This document shows, one piece after another, positions 2,960-15,680 of a stretch of DNA of 64,000 bases; within the stretch, counting starts at the first letter, position 1, and each line of letters opens with the position of its first letter. The notes beneath the pieces are model-generated. The model searched no databases and was not told the origin of the DNA. It worked only from the letters and a program-made list of their open reading frames with translations. This DNA is from an uncultured Bacillales bacterium (lineage in GTDB: Bacteria; Bacillota_I; Bacilli_A; RFN20; CAG-826): positions 22,491 through 86,490 of the forward strand of contig CABQKC010000002.1 in the NCBI GenBank assembly GCA_902464635.1, written 5' to 3'. The position numbers were made by a program, and so were the translations under genes.

Positions 2960-3160
2960 GGGTCAAGTATAATTCGGTTAGGGAATAAAATCACTTTATT
3001 TATAAATAAATAGGTTAATTAAGGGCAAAAATAAAAACTTTAAACCTATTATAAAAATAATTATCTCGTGTTTTTACGTCTATAATCTTAAAAAACATAG
3101 TAAAAATAGATGGATTTCTAGATTATAAACAGGAAATCTGTCTATAATCAAAAAATAAAC

Positions 3161-3188
3161 TTGAAAAGTATCGTTATTTAAATACAAT
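3161..3188 (+). promoter_or_regulatory. putative sigma-A type promoter for the ATPase/Toprim-like pair
   Basis: TTGAAA (3161-3166), 16 nt spacer, TACAAT (3183-3188), then SD GGAG at 3196-3199 and ATG at 3204. Two further TATAAT boxes lie upstream at 3081 and 3143. Confidence 0.3.
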
Positions 3189-3203
3189 ATTCATTGGAGA
3201 TAA

Positions 3204-4346
3204 ATGATGAAATTGTTGAAGTTTAAAGTTAATAGCGGATATAAAATGTTAGAAAAGGGTTTTGAAGTCAATTTTTTGACCAAGACTAGGATTAATAAAG
3301 ATGCTCTTAATGACGATATTATCGAATTGGAAGAAGGACTTTATTATCCTTTAGAAACGGTGTTTATCGGTAAGAACTCTTCTGGCAAGACTTCTGTTCT
3401 CATTTTGATTGAATTGATATTGAATTTCATCAAAAGTGGCAGAATCCCTGTTGACTTAATACTTGATCAAGATGCATTGGAATTGGAATTTCTCTTCTAT
3501 GATTCCGGATATATATATTTATACAAAGGTGAATTTTACAAAAATGAATTAAGCAATCTTTCTTATATGGTTATTAGGAATGAATCCTTGAAAAAGACCA
3601 TATATAAAAAGAACTACAAAAAGGACTTAAGCAACATTTCTTTCCCTAAAGATTATATCTTCCTTAATGAAGATAGTGGGAGTGACACTTCTGAAATAGC
3701 TAAACTAAAAATAGCGGATTCATCTATTCTTTTGGATTTAAATTCAATCGATAATTCTAATCTTGCCTCTATTATAGAAAAGATAAATTTATTTTATGGG
3801 AACGATGCTTTTAATTGCTTAGTTGCATTATTTGATGACAGCATCGAAAGCATAAAGCCTGTCAGACTAGATGATAATTCGGCTGCCTTTAAATTCAAAA
3901 GAGTCAACAAGCCAGAAGTTTTAGTAAATCTTTCTTATTTAAAAGATAGGCTATCTTCAGGCACATATAGAGGGATATATCTATTTGCTGCCTCGCTTCT
4001 TTCTTTTAGGCTCGGTGGGGATATTTTAGTTGATGAAATCGAAAAGAGTTTCAATAAGAATCTAATAGAAAATCTATTCATTCTTTTTAATGATAAAAGG
4101 ATTAATAGGAAAAATGCATCAATTATATATTCCACCCATTATGCTGGATTATTAGATCATAGCCCTAGATGCGATAACATCAATGTTTTGCATAGGGTTG
4201 GCGATAAAATAAGCATTAGCAACATGTCTACTTCATATGAAATGAGAACGGATATTTCAAAATCAAATCAATTTGAGCAAAATGCATTTGATAATCTAAC
4301 AAATTACGATAGATTGATGGACTTAAGGAGAGTTTTGCTTAAATGA
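3204..4346 (+). CDS. soluble ABC/SMC-like ATPase (AAA_15/AAA_21-type), candidate defence-system NTPase
   Basis: Walker A GKNSSGKTS (res 56-64, nt 3369-3395). ABC signature-like LSSGT (res 250-254). Walker B ILVDE (res 274-278). H-loop STH (res 310-312). No TM segments and no transporter partner. Confidence 0.85.
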   Translation: MMKLLKFKVNSGYKMLEKGFEVNFLTKTRINKDALNDDIIELEEGLYYPLETVFIGKNSSGKTSVLILIELILNFIKSGRIPVDLILDQDALELEFLFYDSGYIYLYKGEFYKNELSNLSYMVIRNESLKKTIYKKNYKKDLSNISFPKDYIFLNEDSGSDTSEIAKLKIADSSILLDLNSIDNSNLASIIEKINLFYGNDAFNCLVALFDDSIESIKPVRLDDNSAAFKFKRVNKPEVLVNLSYLKDRLSSGTYRGIYLFAASLLSFRLGGDILVDEIEKSFNKNLIENLFILFNDKRINRKNASIIYSTHYAGLLDHSPRCDNINVLHRVGDKISISNMSTSYEMRTDISKSNQFEQNAFDNLTNYDRLMDLRRVLLK

Positions 4347-4840
4347 AAATTCTTCTTGCTTGCGAAGGACAAAGCGAAGTTTTTTTATTAAATAGCCTCA
4401 TTGAAAAAGGCTATTTAGATTTTAAGTGCCCATTGTTACTTGATGAACCAATAAGATTAAGACAATTAGCAGAAATTGCCCCAATCATCAACGCTTTACC
4501 AATTAATGAAGAAATCATAATTTATCGTGTTGGCGATACGTTAAAAGAAGATTTTGATTTATCGAAATTCAAGATGCGTCTAAATTATATGAAAGTTTAT
4601 AAAGTTTGTACGAAACCAGAAATCGAAGTACTTATTATTATTAACGAGGGAATTTATCCGGAATATATCAAAAACAGCAAGAAGTATAGGCCTAAGTCTT
4701 TTGTTAACTCCAAATTCAAAGATTTTGATATTGAAAGTTATTTCTATTCCAATGACTTATCTAATGCGATTAGAGAGTACAAAAGATTAAAAAAGCATAA
4801 CAAAGATGAATTATATTTAGCGGATTTATTAACAAAATAG
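4343..4840 (+). CDS. small Toprim/RloB-like protein (EGxxE motif), partner of the upstream ATPase
   Basis: ATGA overlap with the ATPase stop. N-terminus MKILLACEGQSEVFLL (E8, E12) resembles the OLD/RloB/DUF4276 Toprim start. IIIYRVGD...DFD is an acidic cluster. KPEIEVLIII resembles the RloB NPxFExWLL motif (from memory). Confidence 0.7.
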   Translation: MKILLACEGQSEVFLLNSLIEKGYLDFKCPLLLDEPIRLRQLAEIAPIINALPINEEIIIYRVGDTLKEDFDLSKFKMRLNYMKVYKVCTKPEIEVLIIINEGIYPEYIKNSKKYRPKSFVNSKFKDFDIESYFYSNDLSNAIREYKRLKKHNKDELYLADLLTK

Positions 4841-5007
4841 GCTTTTTATCGATATTTTTTCTTGCCTGTTAAAAGGAAACGAAAATTTTATTTGTATTTT
4901 GCTTAAAATGGTTGATAATAAACCCGTACAAAAATTAAGCAAAACGCCTCGCGCCTGAAAGAAGTGATCTTATCGGGCAAGGGGATTATTTCGCTTGTAG
5001 GAGATTT

Positions 5008-6177
5008 ATGGCTAAAGAAAACATCGAACAGTACGAACTTAAAGAGATCAAGGAAGAAGTCGAAACAACCAAAAAGAAAGAAAAATTCGACGATTCTGCC
5101 TTCGTTGCCCTTCATCACATCGACAAAGTCTATGACAATAATGTCCAGGCCGTATTTGATTTCAATCTTGATATCAAAAAGCATGAATTCATCGTCTTTG
5201 TTGGCCCTTCTGGATGTGGTAAATCAACAACCCTCCGTATGGTTGCTGGCCTAGAAGACATCACTAGAGGCGAACTCTATATCGATGGAGAGCTTTGCAA
5301 TGATAAGCAACCAAAAGATAGAAATATCGCGATGGTCTTCCAAAGCTATGCTCTTTATCCACATATGTCTGTCTATGATAACATGGCGTTTGGGCTTGTT
5401 ATTTCTCACCTTCCAAAGGCTGAAATTGATAAAAGAGTCCATGAAGCCGCTAGAATTCTTCAAATCGAGCAATATCTAGATAGAAAGCCAAAGGCCTTGT
5501 CTGGTGGACAAAGGCAGCGTGTTGCCTTGGGTAGGGCAATCGTTAGGAACGCCAAGGTATTCCTGATGGACGAACCTCTATCTAATCTTGATGCTAAACT
5601 TCGTGTCCAGATGAGAAGCGAAATTGTTAAACTTCATCAAGCCTTAGGTGCGACTACAATCTATGTTACCCATGACCAAACCGAAGCTATGACCATGGCC
5701 ACTAGAATTGTTGTCATGAAATTAGGTAGAATCCAACAAATTGGCACTCCAAAGGAAATTTATAATAATCCTGCCAATTTATTCGTTGCTGGATTCATCG
5801 GTTCTCCTTCGATGAATTTCCTTAACGTTGACTATAAAGATGGAAATGTCATCTTCGAAGGTGGCAAGGAAATGAAATTGCCTGCTTCAGTTATCAAAGG
5901 ACATAAATTGCCTGAACAATTCATTCTTGGCATCCGCCCAGAAGATATCCGTCATGTTGAAACTTCGACTAAAGACAATGCAATAGAAGTAGAAGTCAAG
6001 GTTGCTGAACTTCTTGGCTCTGAATATTATTTGCATTGCGATTTCGGGGGAATTGATTTGGTTTCAAAATGCCCAGCTGATAAAGAAATTAAGTCCGGTG
6101 ACAAGGTATTTGTCGAATTGAATTTGTCTAAGATTAAATTCTTCAACAAAGAAAGCGAAGAACACGAAGCAATATAA
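5008..6177 (+). CDS. sugar ABC transporter ATP-binding protein, MalK/MsmK/UgpC family (orphan, no adjacent permease)
   Basis: GPSGCGKST Walker [15 protein letters not shown] signature, [11 protein letters not shown] Walker B and a C-terminal MalK-type regulatory domain. SD AGGAG lies upstream of the ATG at 5008. Confidence 0.9.
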
Positions 6178-6303: not shown

Positions 6304-6861
6304 ATGGAAAGGAAGAAACTTTTTAGTGCTTTGATGTTCTCTTCATTGCTATTTGCTTCTTGCGGGAATAATAGTAATGAGAGTTCGGATACTTCTAGTC
6401 AAGAATCTAGTAAGCCTGATGAAACGGTTACTACGACAGTAACTACTTCGGTAAGTTCAACTACATCAAAACCAAGCGACAGTGATGAACCTTATGCTTT
6501 CGATGGAATCGTACGTATCCATTATAGAAACCAAAATGAATCATATTCATCTAAATGCTTATGGGTTTGGTTAAGTGGGGTAAATGGCCAAATATATGAA
6601 TTTGCCAATAACAATAACCCAGATTCATATGGGCTATGGGCGGATTTTGATTTGCAAGCAGCCCCATTTAATGATTTTTCATTGACTGAACTTAGCTATA
6701 TAGTCAGGGAGAAATCCACCTGGGATGGGCAGACTAGCGATACTTTGATTGAATTCTCTAAATTCAAGCCATATGAAACTACTAGGGAAGATGGAAGGAA
6801 GCAAATAGATGTCTATTCTTTTGATTCAGGCAATAAAAACTTACCCTTTATCCAACTTTGA
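6304..6861 (+). CDS. pullulanase N-terminal fragment: lipoprotein signal, Ser/Thr linker and CBM41-like module (frameshifted from 6858-9440)
   Basis: Lipobox LLFASC. IVRIHYRNQNESYSSKCLWVWL is the pullulanase-associated (CBM41/PUD) pattern. The ORF ends at TGA 6859-6861, just after an A5 run at 6835-6839. Confidence 0.75.
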   Translation: MERKKLFSALMFSSLLFASCGNNSNESSDTSSQESSKPDETVTTTVTTSVSSTTSKPSDSDEPYAFDGIVRIHYRNQNESYSSKCLWVWLSGVNGQIYEFANNNNPDSYGLWADFDLQAAPFNDFSLTELSYIVREKSTWDGQTSDTLIEFSKFKPYETTREDGRKQIDVYSFDSGNKNLPFIQL

Positions 6862-9440
6862 CTGAAGCAATGGGAGATTATATTAAGGTTGCTAAAGTCA
6901 ATGATGATTGGAAATCTATCTATGTTGAAGGGGATGGATATGATACTGGCACAGGAGATAATAGCAATGTTGGGATAATTAATGCTATAACAGTCTATTC
7001 TTTCCCAAATAGCTATCAACTTCTTAGCGATACTATAAAAGAACAAAAGAAGAATGATTACATAATCTATCAAGACGCCCCAAGGAAAAAGGAATTAAAT
7101 ATTACCCTTAAGGAAGAATTAGTTCCTACTAACCAATATTTAGTCGAAGTCTATTTTGCTTCCGATATGGATAATGTTAAACGCGCCAATGTATCCTTCT
7201 CTTCTTTATTTGAATCCGAGATTTGGAAAAATAAATATGAATATGAAGGGGATGATTTAGGATTATCATTCAAGGATGCCTCTAAACCAAATAGGGCAAC
7301 ATTCAAATTATGGTCCCCATTAGCATTTGATGTTAAGTTATATGCCTACCAAAAAAGTGCTCCTTTGGCTTATTTTGACCATTATGTTGGGGGAACTGCC
7401 TTTAAGAATGTCTACCAAATGAAATATACTTCAAAAGGTGTCTATGAAGCGGTAGTCGACTTAAAAGAAGAAGATAAATTCTATACTTATTATGTAAGCA
7501 ATATCGAAGGTCAATTCGAGACTATCGACCCATATGCCAAAGCTAGCGGCATCAATGGAATTAGAGGGGCAATATTAAATAACAATCAATGGAAAGAAAC
7601 TGATCCAGAAGGATTTTCTTCCATCAGGGGAAATACTTCTTCTTATCCATTTACCCATATAAATACCTTAAATGATTTAGATATCTATGAAGTTCATATC
7701 CGTGATTTCACTGCTTCTAATTCCTGGGTTTCTAATAATGATAATAGAAGGGGTACCTATAATGCCTTCGTTGAAGAAGGTACGACTTATGAAGGGGTAT
7801 CGACTGGATTTGACTCACTTAAGGAACTAGGGGTTTCGGCCGTCCAGCTTTTACCTGTATTCGACCAGGATAATGATGAAAGAGTATGGCTAAATAAAGA
7901 TGGAACCTATAGAAAATATCCTACCTATAACTGGGGATATAATCCAAGTAACTATAATGTTATAGAAGGTGCATATGCTTCTAATCCAGAAGATGAACTC
8001 AATAGGATTACGGAATTCAAGAACCTAGTCAAGAAATGTGCCGATTACGACATTAGAGTCATAATGGATGTTGTCTACAACCATGTTTCTAGCGTTTCTA
8101 AGTCTAGTTTTACCAAAACCATGCCTCAATATTATTTCAAGGTTGATGAAAATGGTACCTATATCGACCAAACAGGATGTAACAATACCCTTGATTCATC
8201 TAAGGGAATGGTTGAACGCTATATAATCAATTCAGTTTGCTTCTACGCAAAAGAATACGGAATAAAAGGTTTTAGATTCGATTTGATGGGATGTTTAGAA
8301 ACTTCTACGATGAGAAAACTAAAAGATGCCTTATATGAAATCGATCCTGAAATCGTTGTCTATGGCGAAGGATGGAGAGGAAGTGGATTTGCTAGTTCAA
8401 CCCAAGCTGGAAAGGAAAATGTCTATCAATATCTAGGGGATAATGGCAAGGGGGAAGTCGGTGCTTTTAATGATGGAGGCAGAAACGGACTTAAAGGTGA
8501 TACAAAATGGGCTGATATTGTTCCTTCTTATGGCTTTATGGGACAAGGTCCTTCCGATTTAAGCGAAGATACAATGTATGATGCAACCTGCACTTATCTA
8601 GGTGAAAATAGGCATGTAACGCAATCTGGAATCGCAACTAGCCCAACCCAAACGATAAATTATGTCGATTGCCACGATAATTATACTTTATATGATTCGC
8701 TTAATTATATGTATGATGGAGGGAAGAATTGCAATAACGATACTAACCCAATTCAAGATGCTACTATTGCTACGATGAGTTATGTAATCCTCTCCCAAGG
8801 TGCTGCCTTTATCCATGGGGGAAGTGAATTCTTTAGGCAAAAGATCATGAAAAAAGATGATCCTAATATCGATTTATTAAAGGATTCCATCAAAGTGCAT
8901 GAGACCTATATCGAAGGTGATGGATTTGAAATCCCAGGTGGCGATGGGGATTATCTAGTCAGGAATTCCTATCAATATGGAGATTCGGTCAATGCTTTTG
9001 ATTGGTCTAGGAAAGTCAAATACCTTTCTTATTTCAATAAGATAAAAGAGGCCATATCTACTAGAAAAGCGTTAGTAAAAGAAGGAAGGCTCGGAGTTAA
9101 CTACAACGCTATCCAAGGTTCCTATAAGGATGGTGAAGGAAACATTAAGAAATATAGCCGTCTATGGGATGATTTGGTGCAACGCGATGCTTCAAATCTA
9201 TTACGTCCAGTTTTGGCAGCCCAGACTGAATTCTCCAAGATGCCAGCTTCTACTAAATTAGATGTCTATTCTTTCCTTGGGGGAAGGATGAATGAAGATG
9301 AATCCATTATCGGAATCGGCAACGGCAAGCTTAGGGTCTTATATGGCTCCAAGCGTAATAAAGGCGATATAATCGAAGTTTCGGATTATAAATTAGCCAT
9401 TAGCAAGCATGAAATGCTATTTGTAGAAAGGATTGCCTAA
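6858..9440 (+). CDS. pulA: type I pullulanase, catalytic portion (GH13); lacks its own signal peptide
   Basis: GH13 regions VIMDVVYNHV, GFRFDLMG, YGEGW and YVDCHDNYTLYD. Frame 3 is open from 6837. The only in-frame ATG near the 5' end is at 6870. Confidence 0.85.
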   Translation: MTEAMGDYIKVAKVNDDWKSIYVEGDGYDTGTGDNSNVGIINAITVYSFPNSYQLLSDTIKEQKKNDYIIYQDAPRKKELNITLKEELVPTNQYLVEVYFASDMDNVKRANVSFSSLFESEIWKNKYEYEGDDLGLSFKDASKPNRATFKLWSPLAFDVKLYAYQKSAPLAYFDHYVGGTAFKNVYQMKYTSKGVYEAVVDLKEEDKFYTYYVSNIEGQFETIDPYAKASGINGIRGAILNNNQWKETDPEGFSSIRGNTSSYPFTHINTLNDLDIYEVHIRDFTASNSWVSNNDNRRGTYNAFVEEGTTYEGVSTGFDSLKELGVSAVQLLPVFDQDNDERVWLNKDGTYRKYPTYNWGYNPSNYNVIEGAYASNPEDELNRITEFKNLVKKCADYDIRVIMDVVYNHVSSVSKSSFTKTMPQYYFKVDENGTYIDQTGCNNTLDSSKGMVERYIINSVCFYAKEYGIKGFRFDLMGCLETSTMRKLKDALYEIDPEIVVYGEGWRGSGFASSTQAGKENVYQYLGDNGKGEVGAFNDGGRNGLKGDTKWADIVPSYGFMGQGPSDLSEDTMYDATCTYLGENRHVTQSGIATSPTQTINYVDCHDNYTLYDSLNYMYDGGKNCNNDTNPIQDATIATMSYVILSQGAAFIHGGSEFFRQKIMKKDDPNIDLLKDSIKVHETYIEGDGFEIPGGDGDYLVRNSYQYGDSVNAFDWSRKVKYLSYFNKIKEAISTRKALVKEGRLGVNYNAIQGSYKDGEGNIKKYSRLWDDLVQRDASNLLRPVLAAQTEFSKMPASTKLDVYSFLGGRMNEDESIIGIGNGKLRVLYGSKRNKGDIIEVSDYKLAISKHEMLFVERIA

Positions 9441-9442
9441 AT

Positions 9443-10609
9443 ATGAGAAAGAATATTGTATTATTAATAACTTTGCCTCTAGTTATGCTAGCTGGGTGTG
9501 CTGGGGAGACTCCATCTAGTTCAAGTCCAATTGAGACTGGGACTGATGAAACTATCTATCACACGGTTACTTTCCATTCTAATGGGGGAAGTGAAGTTAC
9601 TCCAATAAAGGTAAAGCATAATACTTTTGCCAAAGAACCAACTATGCCAACAAAAGAAAATTATAAATTCGGTGGTTGGTATGTCGATAATGATTCATTC
9701 CAAGTCAAATACCTATTTAGGTCGACCTTTGTCACTTCTGATTGGGATTTATATGCAAAATGGGATGAAATGGAGGCTTCTTCAACCAATTCTTCTAGTA
9801 GCGAATCTACTTCGACCTCTAGTAGCGAAGAAAACCATTCGGCAACTATATATTTTGCCGATGCCTCTTGGTGGAATAAAGATGCTGCCTCTACCAATGT
9901 TAGATTTGGCGGAATCGATGATGATACTGGTAGTGGCAGGAAGATGGAACATATCCGTTTTTGCCCGACTACTTACACTAATGTTGGCTATAATTACTGG
10001 AAAATCGATATAGAAGATATTAGGGAAATTAGTTATCTTTCTTTCTTGAGGATGTCAGGAGACGGGGAGACTTATTGGGGAGCTTTCTCTACTACTGAAT
10101 TGCCTCTAGATTTGGCTACTACTAATCTATTCACCATTAAAGATAGCGAAGAAAATTATTCATCTAGTGTAGTCGGCATTTGGTCTACTTATGATCCTAG
10201 CGATATAGGTAATCCTGACGCAATAGAGCCACCTTTACCTCCGGTAGTTGAAGAAGGGTATAAGATTGTTGGTTCAGGTTCATTCCTAAATGAAGGGGAT
10301 GATTGGACTAGTACTTCTGGAGTTTTATTAGAATCTAAGCCAGATACAACTTATCCTGACCAAGTTGGCATTAGGATTAGCTTTGCTATTTCTGATACCT
10401 GGAAAATTCATGATACTAGAGAAGGAGGTACCCTTTGGGCTGGATATGATGCAATTGAAGGCGATCCTTCATTATTGAACGAGACTTATTTTAAAAAAGG
10501 TACCGGTGATAATGTCGTAGTTACTAAAGCAGGTACATTCGATATTTATTTCAAGCCATCCAACTCCAAGATTTGGATTAATCTAGTAACTGAAAGCGGG
10601 GTAGAGTAA
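9443..10609 (+). CDS. surface lipoprotein with a Listeria-Bacteroides (Flg_new) repeat and putative carbohydrate-binding modules
   Basis: Lipobox VMLAGC. YHTVTFHSNGGSEV...YKFGGWYVDND repeat. Ser-rich linker. Trp-rich beta-sandwich-like C-terminal modules. Confidence 0.7.
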   Translation: MRKNIVLLITLPLVMLAGCAGETPSSSSPIETGTDETIYHTVTFHSNGGSEVTPIKVKHNTFAKEPTMPTKENYKFGGWYVDNDSFQVKYLFRSTFVTSDWDLYAKWDEMEASSTNSSSSESTSTSSSEENHSATIYFADASWWNKDAASTNVRFGGIDDDTGSGRKMEHIRFCPTTYTNVGYNYWKIDIEDIREISYLSFLRMSGDGETYWGAFSTTELPLDLATTNLFTIKDSEENYSSSVVGIWSTYDPSDIGNPDAIEPPLPPVVEEGYKIVGSGSFLNEGDDWTSTSGVLLESKPDTTYPDQVGIRISFAISDTWKIHDTREGGTLWAGYDAIEGDPSLLNETYFKKGTGDNVVVTKAGTFDIYFKPSNSKIWINLVTESGVE

Positions 10610-13401
10610 TGAAAAAGTCATCTTGCATACTTTTATTAGCCTTCTCTAGCCTAGCTTTATCTTGCTCAGGAGGGAATTCTTCTAGCGTTTCCTCTTCTTT
10701 TACAAATACTGAAACTTCTTTTTACCAAACATATACATTGATGTTTGCTACTTGTGGGGGTGATTCAATTCAATCTAGCACCCATAAGGAAGGAGAAGAA
10801 ATCGATTTATCTAAATATGTTCCTTCTAGGGCTGGATATTCCTTTATTTCTTGGTGTAAGGAATATGATTCTGCGACTAAGATGGGAAAGATTGGTACTG
10901 AGATTACTTCCTTAAAGATGCCAAAGGGCAATTTGGTGATTTATGCTCGATATAAAAAGGAATCTACTCCAAATCATACCGAAGAAGAATTAAATAAATA
11001 TCTAGCTGCTTTAAAAACCAATTCGGAAGCAAATCATTTCTATTTTCATTATTATCGTTATGATAATTCTCCTTCTAGCTATGAAGATTATGATATCTGG
11101 GCCTGGAATATGGCTCCGAGCGCAAGCGAAGGCCATAAATTCGATTGGATTGGCAGGACTAGTAGTAGCGATGGATTCGATGCTACTGGAGATGCCTCTA
11201 TCGATAGCTTTGGGGGCGCTTATGTCGATATTGATTTAAAGGCAACTTATTCTAGTGGCTGGGACAATACAAATAAAAAGTTCTTAAATAAACCAATGAG
11301 TTTTGATGGATCTAGTAAGATTGGAATCCAGATTGTTAAATCTTCTACTAGAAAATCTGGCAGTGGATTCTGGGTTAATGATGGGTCTAATTTATCAGTC
11401 AAGCTAGATGAATTTGCCCTTGAACTAGAAAATGGAAACAAGGCTTACCATGCCTTTGCCTTGCAAGATCAAGTCCAGACTTCTCTTTCTGCTAAACCAA
11501 TTAGTTCATTATCTTCTCCATTTGATCAAGATGACGGGAGCAATGTCACTTATGGTGATTCTAAATATGATGATGTAAATTGGAACAAAGTTGCCTCTAA
11601 AATGGCAACTTCTAGCGACTTCAAGTCTTTAGGAGTAGGGTATCAAATAATGGTATCTTCTTTTGCTGATAGCGATGGGGATGGCTTTGGGGATATTTAT
11701 GGAATCAGCCAAAAGCTAGATTATCTAAGCGATTTAGGAGTAAAGGTACTTTGGCTTACCCCAATCCAATTATCGTCTTCTTATCATGGCTATGACATTT
11801 CTGATTATACAAAAGTCGATCCTAAGTTTGGGTCTAAGACTTCTCCAAATGCAGTAGATGGCTTAGTAAGTGCCGAATCAGCCTTGCTAGATTATAAAGA
11901 CTTAATCGAAAAAGCCCATGAAAAGGGCATGAAGGTCTTGATGGACTTGGTACTTAACCACACATCTACCAATAATAACTGGTTCATTTCTAGTGCAAAT
12001 CTAGATTCAGACTATAGAGGTTTTTACCAATGGGGGAACCATATTAATAATAAGGATAAGATAAACCAAGGTAATTCCTGGTATCCATATGGGGATCATC
12101 CATATAGCTATTATGCTAAATTCGGTAGCGATATGCCTGAACTTAATTATTCTTATATTTCGACTAGGGAAGCCGTCTATAAGATGACTCTTGATTGGTG
12201 CGAGTTCGGTGTCGATGGATTTAGGCTTGATGCCGTCAAGCATATATTCATGAATGATGAAGTATCTTCTAGCGAAGGTGATTCATTGATTTATGACAAA
12301 TCCGCTTCCGGAGATTATTCTAGCGACCTAACCAAAAACATTCATTTCTTCAATGAACTGAATTACAAACTGAAATCAAAATACCCGAATTCATTCATTG
12401 TAGGGGAGAATTTCGATGGGCATGCGTACCATGTCGCACCTTATTATTCTTCCTTTGATTCGATGTTTGATTTCTATTCCTATTTCAATTTGACATCAGC
12501 CGCGGCAACAGGAAGAAGTAAATCGACTAGTAAATATGGGACTGCTAGCGGATTCTTATCTAATAGTTCTACCTATAATGTTACTAGCGATTCTAATGCA
12601 AGAAACGGCAAGGATAACTTGCTCCAAGTTGCCTCTAATTCAAACTGGAATTTTGTCGATGTATATAAAACCTATAATAAATATAGGGGAGATACATCTT
12701 TGCCAGGTTTATTTACTTCTAATCACGATATAGCACGTGTTATTAATCGCATTGCCGGAAGTGGGGATGCTTCTGGGCTTTCTAACCAAGGAAATGTAAA
12801 TGCATCCAATTACAAATCACTTGAGCAAAGTGCGATGTGCGTGAAGATTGCCTCTATTTTATTCCCTGGAATTACCTGGGTTTATTATGGAGATGAAATC
12901 GGACTTACTGGAAATTTCCCTAGTGGAGTAAGCTCTACTTCTGGATATGCAGACTTATATTATAGGCAGCCAATGAAATGGACCCAGGGACAAAAAGTCA
13001 ATGATGGATCTATGGCTACTGAATATAATGTTACTGGATCTTCAAAGACTGTAAAGCTTGATGAAATCAATTCTTCTAGCCTTGTTAAGTCCGCTAGCGA
13101 ACAGATGACTGATGATAATTCTTCATATTCGAATCTAAAGAAATTCATATCCATCAAGAATTCTTATCCATCATTGATTACAGGTATTTTCGAAGCTTCT
13201 AATTTTGCTTCAGGCAATCTAGCTGCGAATGTCTTGTGTTTTACTAGGACTTTAGGTAGCCAAACCATTAAGGTAGCAGTTAATTTCAATAATACCGAGA
13301 TATCTGCCTATGGCCTAAAAGGGGACATTTTAGGGTCATATAATGGTGCAACCCAAACAAAATTGCCTGCATATTCTGCCATTGCAGTGTTGCAAAAATA
13401 A
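10609..13401 (+). CDS. GH13 alpha-amylase family lipoprotein (amylase/neopullulanase-like) with Flg_new repeat and CBM41-like module
   Basis: Lipobox LALSC. YTLMFATCGG...GYSFISW repeat. HFYFHYYRYDNSPSSYEDYDIWAWN. GH13 regions DLVLNHTS, GFRLDAVKH, VGENFD and FTSNHDIARV. TAATG overlap with the upstream gene. Confidence 0.85.
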   Translation: MKKSSCILLLAFSSLALSCSGGNSSSVSSSFTNTETSFYQTYTLMFATCGGDSIQSSTHKEGEEIDLSKYVPSRAGYSFISWCKEYDSATKMGKIGTEITSLKMPKGNLVIYARYKKESTPNHTEEELNKYLAALKTNSEANHFYFHYYRYDNSPSSYEDYDIWAWNMAPSASEGHKFDWIGRTSSSDGFDATGDASIDSFGGAYVDIDLKATYSSGWDNTNKKFLNKPMSFDGSSKIGIQIVKSSTRKSGSGFWVNDGSNLSVKLDEFALELENGNKAYHAFALQDQVQTSLSAKPISSLSSPFDQDDGSNVTYGDSKYDDVNWNKVASKMATSSDFKSLGVGYQIMVSSFADSDGDGFGDIYGISQKLDYLSDLGVKVLWLTPIQLSSSYHGYDISDYTKVDPKFGSKTSPNAVDGLVSAESALLDYKDLIEKAHEKGMKVLMDLVLNHTSTNNNWFISSANLDSDYRGFYQWGNHINNKDKINQGNSWYPYGDHPYSYYAKFGSDMPELNYSYISTREAVYKMTLDWCEFGVDGFRLDAVKHIFMNDEVSSSEGDSLIYDKSASGDYSSDLTKNIHFFNELNYKLKSKYPNSFIVGENFDGHAYHVAPYYSSFDSMFDFYSYFNLTSAAATGRSKSTSKYGTASGFLSNSSTYNVTSDSNARNGKDNLLQVASNSNWNFVDVYKTYNKYRGDTSLPGLFTSNHDIARVINRIAGSGDASGLSNQGNVNASNYKSLEQSAMCVKIASILFPGITWVYYGDEIGLTGNFPSGVSSTSGYADLYYRQPMKWTQGQKVNDGSMATEYNVTGSSKTVKLDEINSSSLVKSASEQMTDDNSSYSNLKKFISIKNSYPSLITGIFEASNFASGNLAANVLCFTRTLGSQTIKVAVNFNNTEISAYGLKGDILGSYNGATQTKLPAYSAIAVLQK

Positions 13402-13450
13402 GAAAAAGTATCGATAAAATCTAAGCAATTTAATAGGGTTTTAATTATAC

Positions 13451-13478
13451 TTGAAAAACGTCAATTTAATTGTATAAT
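13451..13478 (+). promoter_or_regulatory. sigma-A type promoter
   Basis: TTGAAA (13451-13456), 16 nt spacer, TATAAT (13473-13478). SD AAAGGGG lies just before the ATG at 13505. Confidence 0.5.
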
Positions 13479-13504
13479 GAAACCCGTTTCAAAGGGGAAA
13501 AAGA

Positions 13505-14143
13505 ATGAAAATCAAATCATTACTAAGCCTAATAACATTAGGAGTTGGAGTAGGTGCCTTAGGACTTACATCAGTAGTTTCTTCTAATGCTAAAAATGTG
13601 CCTAATTTAAAGGCAGAGAAAGAAGCTACCGCCGAAACCGGTCCAAAAGTAGGTGATACTGAAGGATGGTTCTTAAAAGGCGGAATAAACGGATGGAACG
13701 AGGATAATCCATTCACTTTTGATGAAACCGGGGTTTATTCGACGACAATCACTTTAACAGATACAAAAGATGCAAAAGCCAATGCATTTAAGTTTTACCA
13801 TAAAGATCCGGAAATTTGGAAAGACTTTTCTGCGATTCAAAATTTTAGGAATATTGACCCGAGCATAATAAAATTAAGTGTTGATGGTGATGGTAATTCA
13901 TCCATCGCTGAAAACGGCACCTATAAGTTTTCTTATGTTCATTCCAATATCTATACAGAAAACGGTGAAAAGAAAAGCAAAACTGCTTTCTGGATGGAAA
14001 AAGTCGGAGAAGAAGTTACTGGTGAAGTAATCTACTTAGGAACTGATCTTGAAATCGTCGAAGGTGAAAGTACAACTAGGGTTGCCGGAAATTATCTTTA
14101 TACATGGAATGATGATGGCACTGGCACACAGAAATATGAATAA
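13505..14143 (+). CDS. secreted starch-binding surface protein, N-terminal fragment (ends at an in-frame TAA inside a CBM)
   Basis: Signal peptide MKIKSLLSLITLGVGVGALGL. Carbohydrate-binding-like GWFLKGGINGWNED. Ends ...YLYTWNDDGTGTQKYE then TAA at 14141-14143. Confidence 0.7.
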   Translation: MKIKSLLSLITLGVGVGALGLTSVVSSNAKNVPNLKAEKEATAETGPKVGDTEGWFLKGGINGWNEDNPFTFDETGVYSTTITLTDTKDAKANAFKFYHKDPEIWKDFSAIQNFRNIDPSIIKLSVDGDGNSSIAENGTYKFSYVHSNIYTENGEKKSKTAFWMEKVGEEVTGEVIYLGTDLEIVEGESTTRVAGNYLYTWNDDGTGTQKYE

Positions 14144-14212
14144 CTTGGTAGTTGGCCTGGAACACCTATAGAAAAACTTAATAGAACTGACTATTTCGGG
14201 CCTTCTAGTTGC

Positions 14213-14842
14213 TTGAATTTTGCTGGAAACGGAGGAATCTATAAGATTGACACATCTTTGTTCCCTAAAGCCAATAGATTCATATTGAGTTATGTAGAAA
14301 ACGGTGAAAAGAAAGCTCAAACAAAGGATATGCGTCACGATGTTACTGGCTGGAAACGTTATTATTCATTCTTCCAAACTCCTGCAACTAGCGGCGGTAC
14401 CGTCGATGGTGATGAAACCGTTTATAATGCGGCAGAATTGGCATTTGATTTATCAAAAGCATTAGAAGGAACAACCCTCATTGCCCCAGGGGGAGAGAAC
14501 AATAGTTATTACTCAGTCTGCAATTTAACTGATAAGGCTCAATTAAAGGGACTAATTGATAAATATGATGCATTAGGCAAAGACAAAGTAACATTTGATA
14601 AATCCACTTACTTGACATATGAATCTGGCGAAGGGGAAACATCAACAAATGATGATATTGCCCTTGCTCAATTGATGAATCAAATTAAAATCAATTATGC
14701 TAAATCGACTAATTCCGTTATGTTCTTAGGTGGCAATTCATCTAACAATGCTACATTAGTTGTTGCAGGAATCTCAGCCGCTACAATCATTGCATCCGCT
14801 TCGATGATAATACTTCGTCGCCATAAGCATAAAAAAGCCTAA
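14213..14842 (+). CDS. C-terminal fragment of the same surface protein (same frame, open from 14144); C-terminal TM anchor
   Basis: Same frame as 13505-14143 with no further stop between them. Codons 14144-14212 read LGSWPGTPIEKLN..., completing a YxW...WPGxP...QTKDM starch-binding motif. C-terminal hydrophobic helix plus RRHKHKKA tail. Confidence 0.65.
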   Translation: MNFAGNGGIYKIDTSLFPKANRFILSYVENGEKKAQTKDMRHDVTGWKRYYSFFQTPATSGGTVDGDETVYNAAELAFDLSKALEGTTLIAPGGENNSYYSVCNLTDKAQLKGLIDKYDALGKDKVTFDKSTYLTYESGEGETSTNDDIALAQLMNQIKINYAKSTNSVMFLGGNSSNNATLVVAGISAATIIASASMIILRRHKHKKA

Positions 14843-14856
14843 TTAATAACATAAAA

Positions 14857-14899
14857 GGCACACTATATTTAGACTTATATAAGTAGTGTGTCTTTTTTT
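14857..14899 (+). terminator. rho-independent terminator
   Basis: GGCACACTA (14857-14865) pairs with TAGTGTGTC (14884-14892), including one G-U pair, and is followed by T7 (14893-14899). Confidence 0.65.
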
Positions 14900-14930
14900 A
14901 TTTATATAAATAAGTATAATTTCCCTTGCG

Positions 14931-15680
14931 ATGAAATTCTCTATTATCTTCCCAATCAAAAACCAAACTGGCATGTTCATTAAAAACCTCAAGGAAAAGG
15001 TCATCCCTTATTTTGAATCCTGTGGTCATGTTTTTGATATTATCGTTGTTCCTAATGGGTCAAGCGAAGAAGAACAATCTAAATTAGAGAAAGATTTATC
15101 GTCTATGCCTCCATATGTAAAAATGCTTCCTTTTAGCAAGATTGGGGCAAAAGGTGCTGCAATTAAAAGAGGGATAGAAGCAAGCAACTGCGATTATGAT
15201 TTATTCATGGATGTTGACCTTGCCACTGATTTAAAAGCCTTTGATATTATTAAAGAAAATATCGGTAAATACGATGCTTTTATAGGGGATAGGGATATGA
15301 AAGGGGCATATTCAGGAAAAAGACCTTTCATAAGACAACTTGGTCATGATGTATCTAAGCAATTGGTCAAATGGAGATTCCATTTCAAGGAAATCAGCGA
15401 TACCCAGTGTGGCTTTAAATGCTTCAAGGATAGTGTTGCCAAAGAGATGATTAAGCATCAGATTATCGATGGGGTTGCCTTTGATGTTGAGTATTGCTAT
15501 TTCCTTTCCTTAAATAAATTCAGGATTAAGCGAATTCCAGTATATTGGATAAATGATGATGCCCATTCATCGATATCATTTGCAAAATCAAGCAAACAGT
15601 TTTCATCCGATTTAGGTAAAATAAAGAAGAATAAAAAGAATTACATACTTCCTAAGGGAGTCAAGGAATCATTATGTTAA
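14931..15680 (+). CDS. family 2 glycosyltransferase (dolichyl-phosphate-sugar synthase-like)
   Basis: FSIIFPIKNQ...IVVPNGSSEEE...DYDLFMDVDLATD (GT2 DxD), about 250 aa, soluble. Confidence 0.7.
   Translation: MKFSIIFPIKNQTGMFIKNLKEKVIPYFESCGHVFDIIVVPNGSSEEEQSKLEKDLSSMPPYVKMLPFSKIGAKGAAIKRGIEASNCDYDLFMDVDLATDLKAFDIIKENIGKYDAFIGDRDMKGAYSGKRPFIRQLGHDVSKQLVKWRFHFKEISDTQCGFKCFKDSVAKEMIKHQIIDGVAFDVEYCYFLSLNKFRIKRIPVYWINDDAHSSISFAKSSKQFSSDLGKIKKNKKNYILPKGVKESLC

Follow-up and report, generated by a model that had tools for sequence, protein, structure and literature searches.

A compact, mobile ABC ATPase gene pair of gut Firmicutes with a probable minimal Toprim-type effector

Systems that combine an ATP-binding cassette (ABC) ATPase with a Toprim protein (OLD, Gabija, PARIS, and AbiL) count among the most frequent immune modules of bacteria, and for the AbiL-type split systems we know of no established mechanism. 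The present analysis concerns a two-gene locus, here called A and B, within a stretch of 64,000 nucleotides (the window; contig CABQKC010000002.1, positions 22,491 to 86,490, assembly GCA_902464635.1) from an uncultured Bacillales bacterium. The original prediction, made from the letters and their reading frames, had placed the pair in the ATPase plus Toprim-nuclease logic of OLD, GajA, PARIS, and AbiL, and its architecture does belong to a known class that contains OLD classes 1-4, AbiL, MADS3-4, and HEC-01 (PMC11464382; PMC13064643). In PARIS, AriA sequesters AriB and releases it upon binding of a trigger, and tRNA is cleaved (PMC11464382). TOPRIM_OLD toxins that are neutralized by an AAA-ATPase have been validated in the NetFlax study (PMC10440598), HEC-04 requires both its Walker A motif and its nuclease site for defence (10.1101/2024.01.29.577857), and the published two-metal site of BpOLD consists of E400, E404, D455/D457, T506, E508, and K562 (PMC6755086). 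With moderate confidence, A and B are read here as a self-contained two-gene conflict module of the OLD-like/AbiL class in which B is a minimal nuclease effector of the Toprim type; by analogy with the systems above, the pair probably serves immunity, either through abortive infection or in a toxin-antitoxin-like manner.

The stop codon of A and the start codon of B overlap in the sequence ATGA (4343-4346), and the two genes with their ribosome-binding sites are located as follows:
3204..4346, + strand: gene A, a soluble ABC-type ATPase of 380 amino acids (aa), AAA_21, AbiLi-like
3196-3199, + strand: Shine-Dalgarno sequence GGAG of A, read from the sequence, ending 4 nt before the ATG at 3204
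4343..4840, + strand: gene B, an acidic alpha/beta protein of 165 aa from a family without annotation
4325-4332, + strand: Shine-Dalgarno-like AAGGAGAG of B, read from the sequence, in the 3' end of A and ending 10 nt before the ATG at 4343

The overlap, which is conserved among the related loci, bears out the translational coupling that had been predicted, and the accompanying claim that both genes share one Shine-Dalgarno sequence gives way to a separate Shine-Dalgarno-like site for B. A homologue of A (28-97% identity) lies directly upstream of a homologue of B in 87/87 fetched loci, with an A-B gap that in 76/84 loci is -4 (48 loci), -1 (20 loci), or 0 nt (8 loci), and the pairwise distances of A and B are correlated with r=0.955 (Mantel 0/2000). 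The co-occurrence in other genomes that had been proposed as a check is therefore found, and A and B are strictly co-inherited and co-evolve with no partner swapping. When compared with close orthologues, A has a ratio of nonsynonymous to synonymous substitution (dN/dS) of 0.03-0.08, and B one of 0.09-0.11. Because of these ratios, the retention of the pair in every related locus, and the conserved stop/start overlap, chance reading frames can be set aside, and both A and B are real genes under purifying selection. In public assemblies the start of A is called one codon later (379 aa). In one strain of the window species (L099:5348-5833), B is called as 161 aa with a start 10 nt after the stop of A and no overlap, possibly as the result of an indel at the junction.

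No third gene is conserved with the pair. The flanking proteins fall into ~460 clusters, flanks are shared only between near-identical genomes, and orthologues at 62-66% identity are found in unrelated neighbourhoods. Within one clade that is spread over many species bins, blastn homology of 88-95% extends from ~165 bp upstream of A to 2-10 bp past the stop codon of B (L038:6701-8536, L048:6699-8536, L050, L042, L061, L063, L066, L056, and L028), and the flanks outside this block of leader, A, and B are unrelated between species of the same clade. The cassette leader of this clade carries the extended -10 element TGTTATAAT and the Shine-Dalgarno sequence AAGGAGG. Since homology is limited to the leader and the two genes, the evolutionary unit is a promoter-A-B cassette of ~1.84 kb, and the pair is mobile as a self-contained cassette between gut bacteria. 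Terminal repeats are not evident at the cassette boundaries, and no recombinase gene was found. The pairs of a Muribaculaceae bin (L038) and a Bacteroidales bin (L022) show 96% and 81% amino acid identity, respectively, to copies in Bacilli/Coprobacillaceae bins, which reflects either recent cross-phylum transfer or mis-binned contigs.

Gene A matches the Pfam family AAA_21 (PF13304) over nearly the whole profile (E = 2e-14, 54.8 bits with a cut-off of 27, profile positions 2-304 of 304), and its match to AAA_15 stays under the Pfam cut-off. The best match in the PADLOC defence library is AbiLi (PDLC02335, E = 7.9e-23, 79 bits), and the AbiLi matches of divergent plasmid orthologues are stronger still (8.7e-33 and 1.5e-28). 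AbiLi is followed by a generic AriA/AAA_21 model (PDLC02980, E = 1.8e-14, at the same coordinates as AAA_21) and by weak matches to HEC-01A (E = 3e-6), PDC-M07A, PtuA, and GajA. The expectation of an AAA_15/AAA_21-type ATPase with a full ABC/SMC-type motif set is thereby confirmed, every motif being found at its predicted residues with the key positions conserved throughout 80 orthologues:
3369..3392 (G56-T63), + strand: Walker A / P-loop GKNSSGKTS, residues 56-64; G56, K57, N58, S60, G61, and K62 are 100% conserved
3951..3965, + strand: ABC signature-like LSSGT, residues 250-254; S251, G253, and T254 are 100% conserved
4023..4037, + strand: Walker B ILVDE, residues 274-278, with the catalytic E278; D277 and E278, and also E280 and F283, are 100% conserved
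4131..4139, + strand: H-loop STH, residues 310-312; T311, H312, and Y313 are 100% conserved

The protein has no transmembrane segment and no transporter partner, the msmK-like gene at 5008..6177 encoding an unrelated sugar-transporter ATPase. A profile of the A family searched against the PDB retrieved generic ABC proteins only (ABC-F, EcfA, Rad50, and OLD 6p74; E = 3e-5 to 0.01), the AriA structure not being among them. Judged by its motifs and profile matches, A is a soluble AAA_21 ABC ATPase with an intact motif set.

The B protein gave no significant match in single-sequence scans against Pfam, PADLOC, NCBIfam, and PHROGs, and profiles made from two B alignments returned only noise from the PDB sequences (VraR, MEF2, and the VSV L protein). 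The family around it contains 50 clusters at 90% identity in a word-indexed search and 710 clusters at 50% identity in an exhaustive profile search (E<1e-3; 393 of these under 1e-10), with lengths that are nearly all between 165 and 200 aa. In public databases its members are unnamed, labelled 'hypothetical protein', or erroneously labelled 'N-6 DNA methylase'. The last label is found in RefSeq on proteins of 164-181 aa from Ligilactobacillus salivarius, Lacticaseibacillus paracasei, Leuconostoc, and Lactobacillus sp. (L088:6986-7528 in NZ_CP089851.1, WP_095759350.1; P0186, P0362, and P0377), none of which has a recorded Pfam domain; a direct scan of the L088 homologue gave no methyltransferase match, and the label looks like a propagated misannotation.

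Only five residues (E8, G9, D65, E93, and E95) are invariant among 107 divergent members of the family, and a further six (E12, L19, R62, P92, L97, and Y146) are conserved in >=90%. The N-terminus of B, MKILLACEGQSE, contains ILLACEGQSE with E8 and E12, and the two other segments that had been singled out, IIIYRVGD (58-65) and KPEIEVLIII (91-100), are likewise present. The reading of DFD (residues 70-72) as a Toprim DxD is not upheld: these residues are not conserved, and the conserved element is R62-x-G64-D65 with one invariant Asp. Three motifs can thus be listed for B:
4361..4378, + strand: motif I, C7-E8-G9-Q-S-E12; EG comes after beta1, and E12 lies in alpha1; proposed equivalent of OLD E400/E404
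4526..4537, + strand: motif II, R62-V-G64-D65; located where strand 58-64 ends on its C-terminal side; D65 is the candidate for the first of the two Asp residues in the Toprim DxD, of which the second is missing
4607..4633, + strand: motif III, C89-T90-K91-P92-E93-I94-E95-V-L97; located where strand 83-89 meets helix 94-101; similar to RloB S-N-(P/E)-C-F-E and OLD T506-x-E508

An AlphaFold2 model of B (pLDDT, the predicted local distance difference test, 91.6; pTM, the predicted template modelling score, 0.86) has the order strand 2-7, helix 10-21, helix 42-50, strand 58-64, helix 74-82, strand 83-89, helix 94-101, and a helical tail in which K/R116-P117-K118 is conserved. The invariant acidic residues stand where strands end on their C-terminal side or where helices begin, a placement that in the model is that of metal-dependent nucleases with a Rossmann-like topology.

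It is fairly probable that B is a Toprim-type protein of a highly diverged OLD/RloB kind. OLD-like_TOPRIM (PF20469) was the sole family to recur in a Pfam scan of the 107 members (8/107, sub-threshold), next to sub-threshold matches to RloB (E = 0.001) and DUF4276. It was also found in 3/5 consensus sequences of B sub-clades at 13-15.6 bits (cut-off 23.2), and its register is constant, residues 3-27 of B aligning with positions 5-30 of the 67 in the profile, that is, with the N-terminal beta1-EGxxE-alpha1 segment only. A PADLOC scan of the same 107 members matched AbiLii in five (the most frequent model; best E = 9e-5), HEC-01B in three, and GajA in three; the consensus of the whole family matches mad4 weakly over residues 1-86, and the B homologue of an L. 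salivarius plasmid aligns residues 59-132 with positions 64-147 of RloB (E = 0.011, sub-threshold). Chance convergence of these matches on Toprim-type models appears unlikely because the families had been named beforehand in the original prediction and are a handful among ~25,000 Pfam and 5,000 PADLOC models. Such convergent, sub-threshold evidence makes the Toprim homology of B probable, not proven.

The AlphaFold2 models of B and of a genuine RloB, taken as a control, have the same order of elements, beta1-EG-alpha1(E)...beta-D...beta-(S/T)x-alpha(ΦE). The Toprim Glu after beta1 and a second Glu at +4 are both present in B (E8 invariant, E12 >=90%, directly after strand 2-7), and T90, E93/E95, and K/R116-P117-K118 are matched to T506, E508, and K562 of BpOLD by order alone:
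After beta1: RloB control, strand 20-24 then E25-G26; B, strand 2-7 then E8-G9; BpOLD, E400
Start of alpha1: RloB control, T29-E30; B, E12; BpOLD, E404
After the third strand: RloB control, strand 88-94 with D94/D96; B, strand 58-64 with D65; BpOLD, D455/D457
Strand-helix junction: RloB control, strand 119-125, S125-N126, helix F129-E130; B, strand 83-89, T90-K91, helix I94-E95; BpOLD, T506-x-E508
Helical domain: RloB control, none identified; B, K/R116-P117-K118; BpOLD, K562

The proposed resemblance to the RloB/OLD Toprim proteins stands, at the level of motifs, for EGxxE and (T/S)xPxΦE, which occupy equivalent positions in the models, and falls for the DxD.

The alternative that survives best is that B is not a Toprim homologue and represents instead a separate family of small metal-dependent nucleases or phosphoesterases with a Rossmann-like fold (either PIN-like or a new variant of the fold), convergently paired with an AbiLi-type ATPase, as were the NERD and PIN effectors of HEC-02 and HEC-03; we consider this possible, on the improbable side. 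ABC ATPases pair with several unrelated nuclease types (10.1101/2024.01.29.577857), and a series of results counts for such a protein and against a Toprim-type B. The B protein of the window has no match to RloB, DUF4276, DUF4435, OLD-like_TOPRIM, or AbiLii in Pfam and PADLOC. The formal tests of homology to RloB are all negative: comparison by hhalign of the B family with an alignment of 53 RloB sequences (seeded with the genuine PF13707 gene beside a pair homologue in L005; default, global, low-mact, and secondary-structure-aware modes, the last with DSSP-derived secondary structure) gave a probability <1% (P ~0.1-0.15) with only the N-terminal (A/C)EG in register, and hmmsearch of a hidden Markov model (HMM) of B against RloB sequences gave no match. 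When the most divergent clade, that of the plasmids, was used to seed an intermediate-sequence search, none of the 75 matches had a Pfam domain, and thus no annotated bridge was found. Position +2 from D65 is L, Q, or variable, which leaves one Asp in place of the Toprim DxD. Foldseek comparison of the B model with the PDB and BFVD found nothing at E<0.001; the best matches are generic three-layer alpha/beta folds, led by the unrelated Rossmann-like fold of PTS EIIA-Man (E = 0.01), with OLD 6nk8 at E = 0.22 (template modelling score, TM, 0.34) and GajA 8tk0 at E = 0.52 (TM 0.39). For window B itself, neither the Toprim profile match nor the fold match to OLD/AriB that had been looked for was obtained, an outcome that the original prediction had itself named as speaking against its proposal.

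The fold search is not discriminating, however, since the genuine RloB modelled in the same way (pLDDT 91.7) also fails, with lumazine synthase as its top match and no OLD or Toprim structure in the top 50; Foldseek therefore cannot decide the Toprim question. The sub-threshold matches, moreover, converge on seven different models of the Toprim type, with PIN and NERD models absent from them, and the combination of EG-x-x-E right after beta1 (second Glu at +4) with (S/T)-x-P-x-Φ-E agrees specifically with the OLD/RloB clade, both of which argue for a diverged Toprim-type B.

Compared with described systems, the pair shares with AbiL and RloAB a translationally coupled operon of two genes in which the ATPase precedes a small acidic effector, and with AbiL the best defence-library match of its ATPase; unlike in AbiL, the second gene has no AbiLii or PF13707 match, so that the assignment to AbiL in the PADLOC sense fails on B. 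Like RloB, B has the order EG..E, D, (S/T)xPxΦE at equivalent positions of the secondary structure, but it is 165 aa long compared with ~230 aa for the RloB control and lacks the second Asp of DxD and the N-terminal extension. The ATPase that is paired with RloB in L005 is ~425 aa long compared with 380 aa for A and has no BLAST-level similarity to it. The OLD family (P2 Old, BpOLD, and including GajA of Gabija) likewise combines an ABC ATPase with a metal-dependent Toprim nuclease, as is proposed for B: the order of the invariant residues parallels E400, E404, D455, T506, E508, and K562, the weak PF20469 matches are in register, and 6nk8 and 8tk0 are among the Foldseek matches. Unlike OLD, the pair is split into two proteins, B has no significant profile or fold match, and the helical domain is much smaller; unlike Gabija, ATPase and effector are separate genes and no helicase partner (GajB/UvrD) is conserved nearby. 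PARIS (AriA with AriB/DUF4435) also splits an AAA_15/21 ATPase from a small Toprim effector, but neither B nor any of the 107 family members matches AriB or DUF4435, and AriA (~55 kDa) and AriB (~35 kDa) are larger. Both A and B are shorter than the AbiL or PARIS components, in agreement with the original impression that they are shorter than canonical members. PADLOC HEC-01 and Mad3/Mad4 of MADS resemble the pair in joining an ATPase with a separate small Toprim protein, the matches being weak and far under family level; HEC-01 occurs within Hma systems and Mad3/4 belong, as accessory components, to a system of eight genes, whereas the cassette stands alone. Among the NetFlax pairs, Firmicutes carry a bicistronic arrangement of an AAA-type ATPase (D29) with a small TOPRIM_OLD toxin (node D44 or D60, the latter with S. 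agalactiae WP_000010056.1 and a possible counterpart of the B family), and both toxicity and neutralization were demonstrated in E. coli (PMC10440598). The architecture is thus already known, and what is new here is probably the combination of an AbiLi-like ATPase with a sequence-isolated, miniaturized, probably Toprim-derived effector that is spread as a minimal cassette.

A tentative and rather doubtful extension of these differences is that B founds a new family of nuclease effectors of minimal length (~165-180 aa) with no link to any modelled family, and that B and its ATPase make up an autonomous immune cassette that is among the smallest (~1.84 kb with the promoter) and spreads between gut Bacillota and into megaplasmids of Bifidobacterium and Lactobacillales. 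If so, the sharp boundaries in the absence of a recombinase or terminal repeats imply an unexplained route of transfer or integration, and the target or trigger may differ from those of PARIS and OLD.

For the favoured reading, a conflict module with a Toprim-type B, a mechanism can be proposed by analogy with PARIS, the AAA-neutralized TOPRIM_OLD toxins of NetFlax, and HEC-04; on that basis we infer a defence phenotype, a physical complex of A and B, a nuclease activity, and its substrate. A would oligomerize, bind B, and sequester it in an inactive state, acting as sensor or regulator and as an antitoxin-like subunit. B would be the effector or toxin, with a putative two-metal site formed by E8, E12, D65, T90, and E93/E95 together with a basic residue of the helical tail. 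A trigger (a protein of a phage or mobile genetic element, a state of DNA or RNA, infection, or stress) would act on A, and ATP binding or hydrolysis by A might then cause a rearrangement through which B is freed or activated. Free B would cut DNA or tRNA and arrest either the cell or the invader, in the manner of abortive infection or of a type-II-like toxin-antitoxin system, and translational coupling would keep the level of A at or above that of B.

A relative was found in 193 of ~185,000 species-representative genomes, with a patchy distribution. The carriers are mostly gut Bacillota (metagenome-assembled genomes, MAGs, of Bacilli, Erysipelotrichaceae, Lachnospiraceae, and Ruminococcus) and include the culturable Lacticaseibacillus, Leuconostoc, and Bifidobacterium; a few occurrences in Bacteroidota or Negativicutes bins may be due to horizontal gene transfer or mis-binning. 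The window proteins are ~93-97% identical to those of a human-gut 'Bacilli bacterium' MAG (L008). Among the 147 non-redundant nearest neighbours surveyed, taken as raw counts, genes for defence or mobile elements are a minority. They comprise three further AbiLi/AriA-type ATPases, AbiEi, mad2/mad3 of MADS, type IV restriction enzymes, PDC-M12A, PDC-S01, and a type I methylase; ResIII helicases, IS66 transposases, integrases, and six HTH_3 regulators are found as well. A canonical pair of AAA_21 (425 aa) and RloB (PF13707, 230 aa) lies 2-3 kb from the mini pair in L005:8929-10891 and L006:775-2725, so that two ATPase plus effector modules of the same logic stand side by side. A gene for a 1013-aa RVT_1 (reverse transcriptase) protein runs off the edge of L006 (L006:1-235), and downstream of the pair homologue P0048 (77 contigs) five genes whose function is unknown, one of them for a DUF2357 protein, form a conserved run (L090-L097, ~9770-15494) that may be another defence-type locus.

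Some of these contexts suit a second alternative, that the pair is chiefly a toxin-antitoxin or addiction module that stabilizes mobile elements, or serves the exclusion of competitors, and has no direct anti-phage role. It is present on two megaplasmids beside leading-region or anti-restriction genes and other toxin-antitoxin genes, adjoining ArdC in Ligilactobacillus salivarius and near Lar, a YafQ toxin-antitoxin pair, and a DNA methyltransferase in Bifidobacterium breve; it moves as a tiny autonomous cassette, and the AAA plus TOPRIM_OLD pairs of NetFlax act as toxin-antitoxin pairs in E. coli, no phage phenotype having been demonstrated for them (PMC10440598). This alternative is nevertheless unlikely: most copies are chromosomal and in contexts other than mobile elements, the pair was found in only 3/72,556 plasmids, a tblastn search of 50,697 phage genomes gave no match (7 IMG/VR contigs do contain the pair, mostly close to their ends), and an addiction role is in any case compatible with abortive infection, PARIS being both (PMC13064643).

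Several observations weigh against a conflict role as such. The related HEC-01 was not protective in E. coli (10.1101/2024.01.29.577857), at many loci the neighbours are housekeeping genes only (neighbours of this kind include LicD, sulfatases, and ribosomal proteins), and in the window species the pair is fixed in a pullulanase/amylase cluster (9/9 contigs), where it is flanked by an RDD membrane-protein operon and msmK, with no presence/absence polymorphism in the 9 contigs that have an identical MsmK. As to whether homologues sit in variable islands or in conserved housekeeping settings, the answer is mixed: neighbourhoods are unrelated, in part rich in defence or mobile-element genes, and extend to megaplasmids, but many neighbours are housekeeping genes. 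A housekeeping function suggested by such settings, either a RecF/RecR-like repair pair of ABC ATPase and Toprim or a regulator of the adjacent starch/pullulan genes, is highly improbable and was rejected on the grounds of variable context and cassette mobility, the neighbours being unrelated between genomes, the distribution patchy, near-identical cassettes standing between unrelated flanks in different species, and the best ATPase match being a defence ATPase and not RecF/SMC_N. Of the original claim of a defence or abortive-infection pair, the AbiLi match, the co-inheritance, and the variable contexts speak in favour, and the anti-phage function remains what we infer from them.

In the window, gene A is preceded by an intergenic region of 245 bp that separates it from the divergently transcribed RDD operon and contains the following sites:
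3161..3188, + strand: promoter-like TTGAAA-16-TACAAT, 10/12 matches; weak, as the count of such sites in the region is not above the shuffled expectation
3151-3122, minus strand (divergent): promoter-like site of the RDD operon

The sequence GTCTATAATC, with a perfect TATAAT in each copy, is present twice in the same region (3078-3087 and 3140-3149, 62 bp apart), and the copies may be alternative or divergent promoters. Between B and msmK a single GC-rich terminator-like hairpin is found in minus-strand orientation (4942-4956), and no clear plus-strand intrinsic terminator was seen there, for which reason read-through from B into msmK is possible. The pair region has a GC content of ~30%, similar to the upstream genes, and the downstream genes are higher (35-43%). 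An Rfam search of the window gave no match. The PUD/pullulanase gene downstream of msmK is split into 185+860 aa in the window (6304-9440), 185+856 aa in L098:7297-10433, and 753+300 aa in L099:7297-10436, and is one reading frame of 1045 aa in L100:7297-10434, which points to strain-level frameshifts, or possibly to phase variation or assembly errors, in this starch-degrading enzyme.

The logic of an ATPase that controls a small nuclease will not surprise specialists, and the interest of the pair is in the size of the family, its invisibility to current models, its sharp cassette boundaries, and its culturable hosts. The cassette is very compact and widespread, being present in at least 193 species that are mostly human and animal gut Firmicutes. 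Because B escapes Pfam and PADLOC and is mislabelled in RefSeq, censuses of defence systems in the gut microbiome probably undercount the cassette, and a dedicated HMM would improve annotation at once. Its small size and its occurrence in culturable lactic acid bacteria would make it a tractable minimal model for how an ABC ATPase gates a Toprim-like nuclease.

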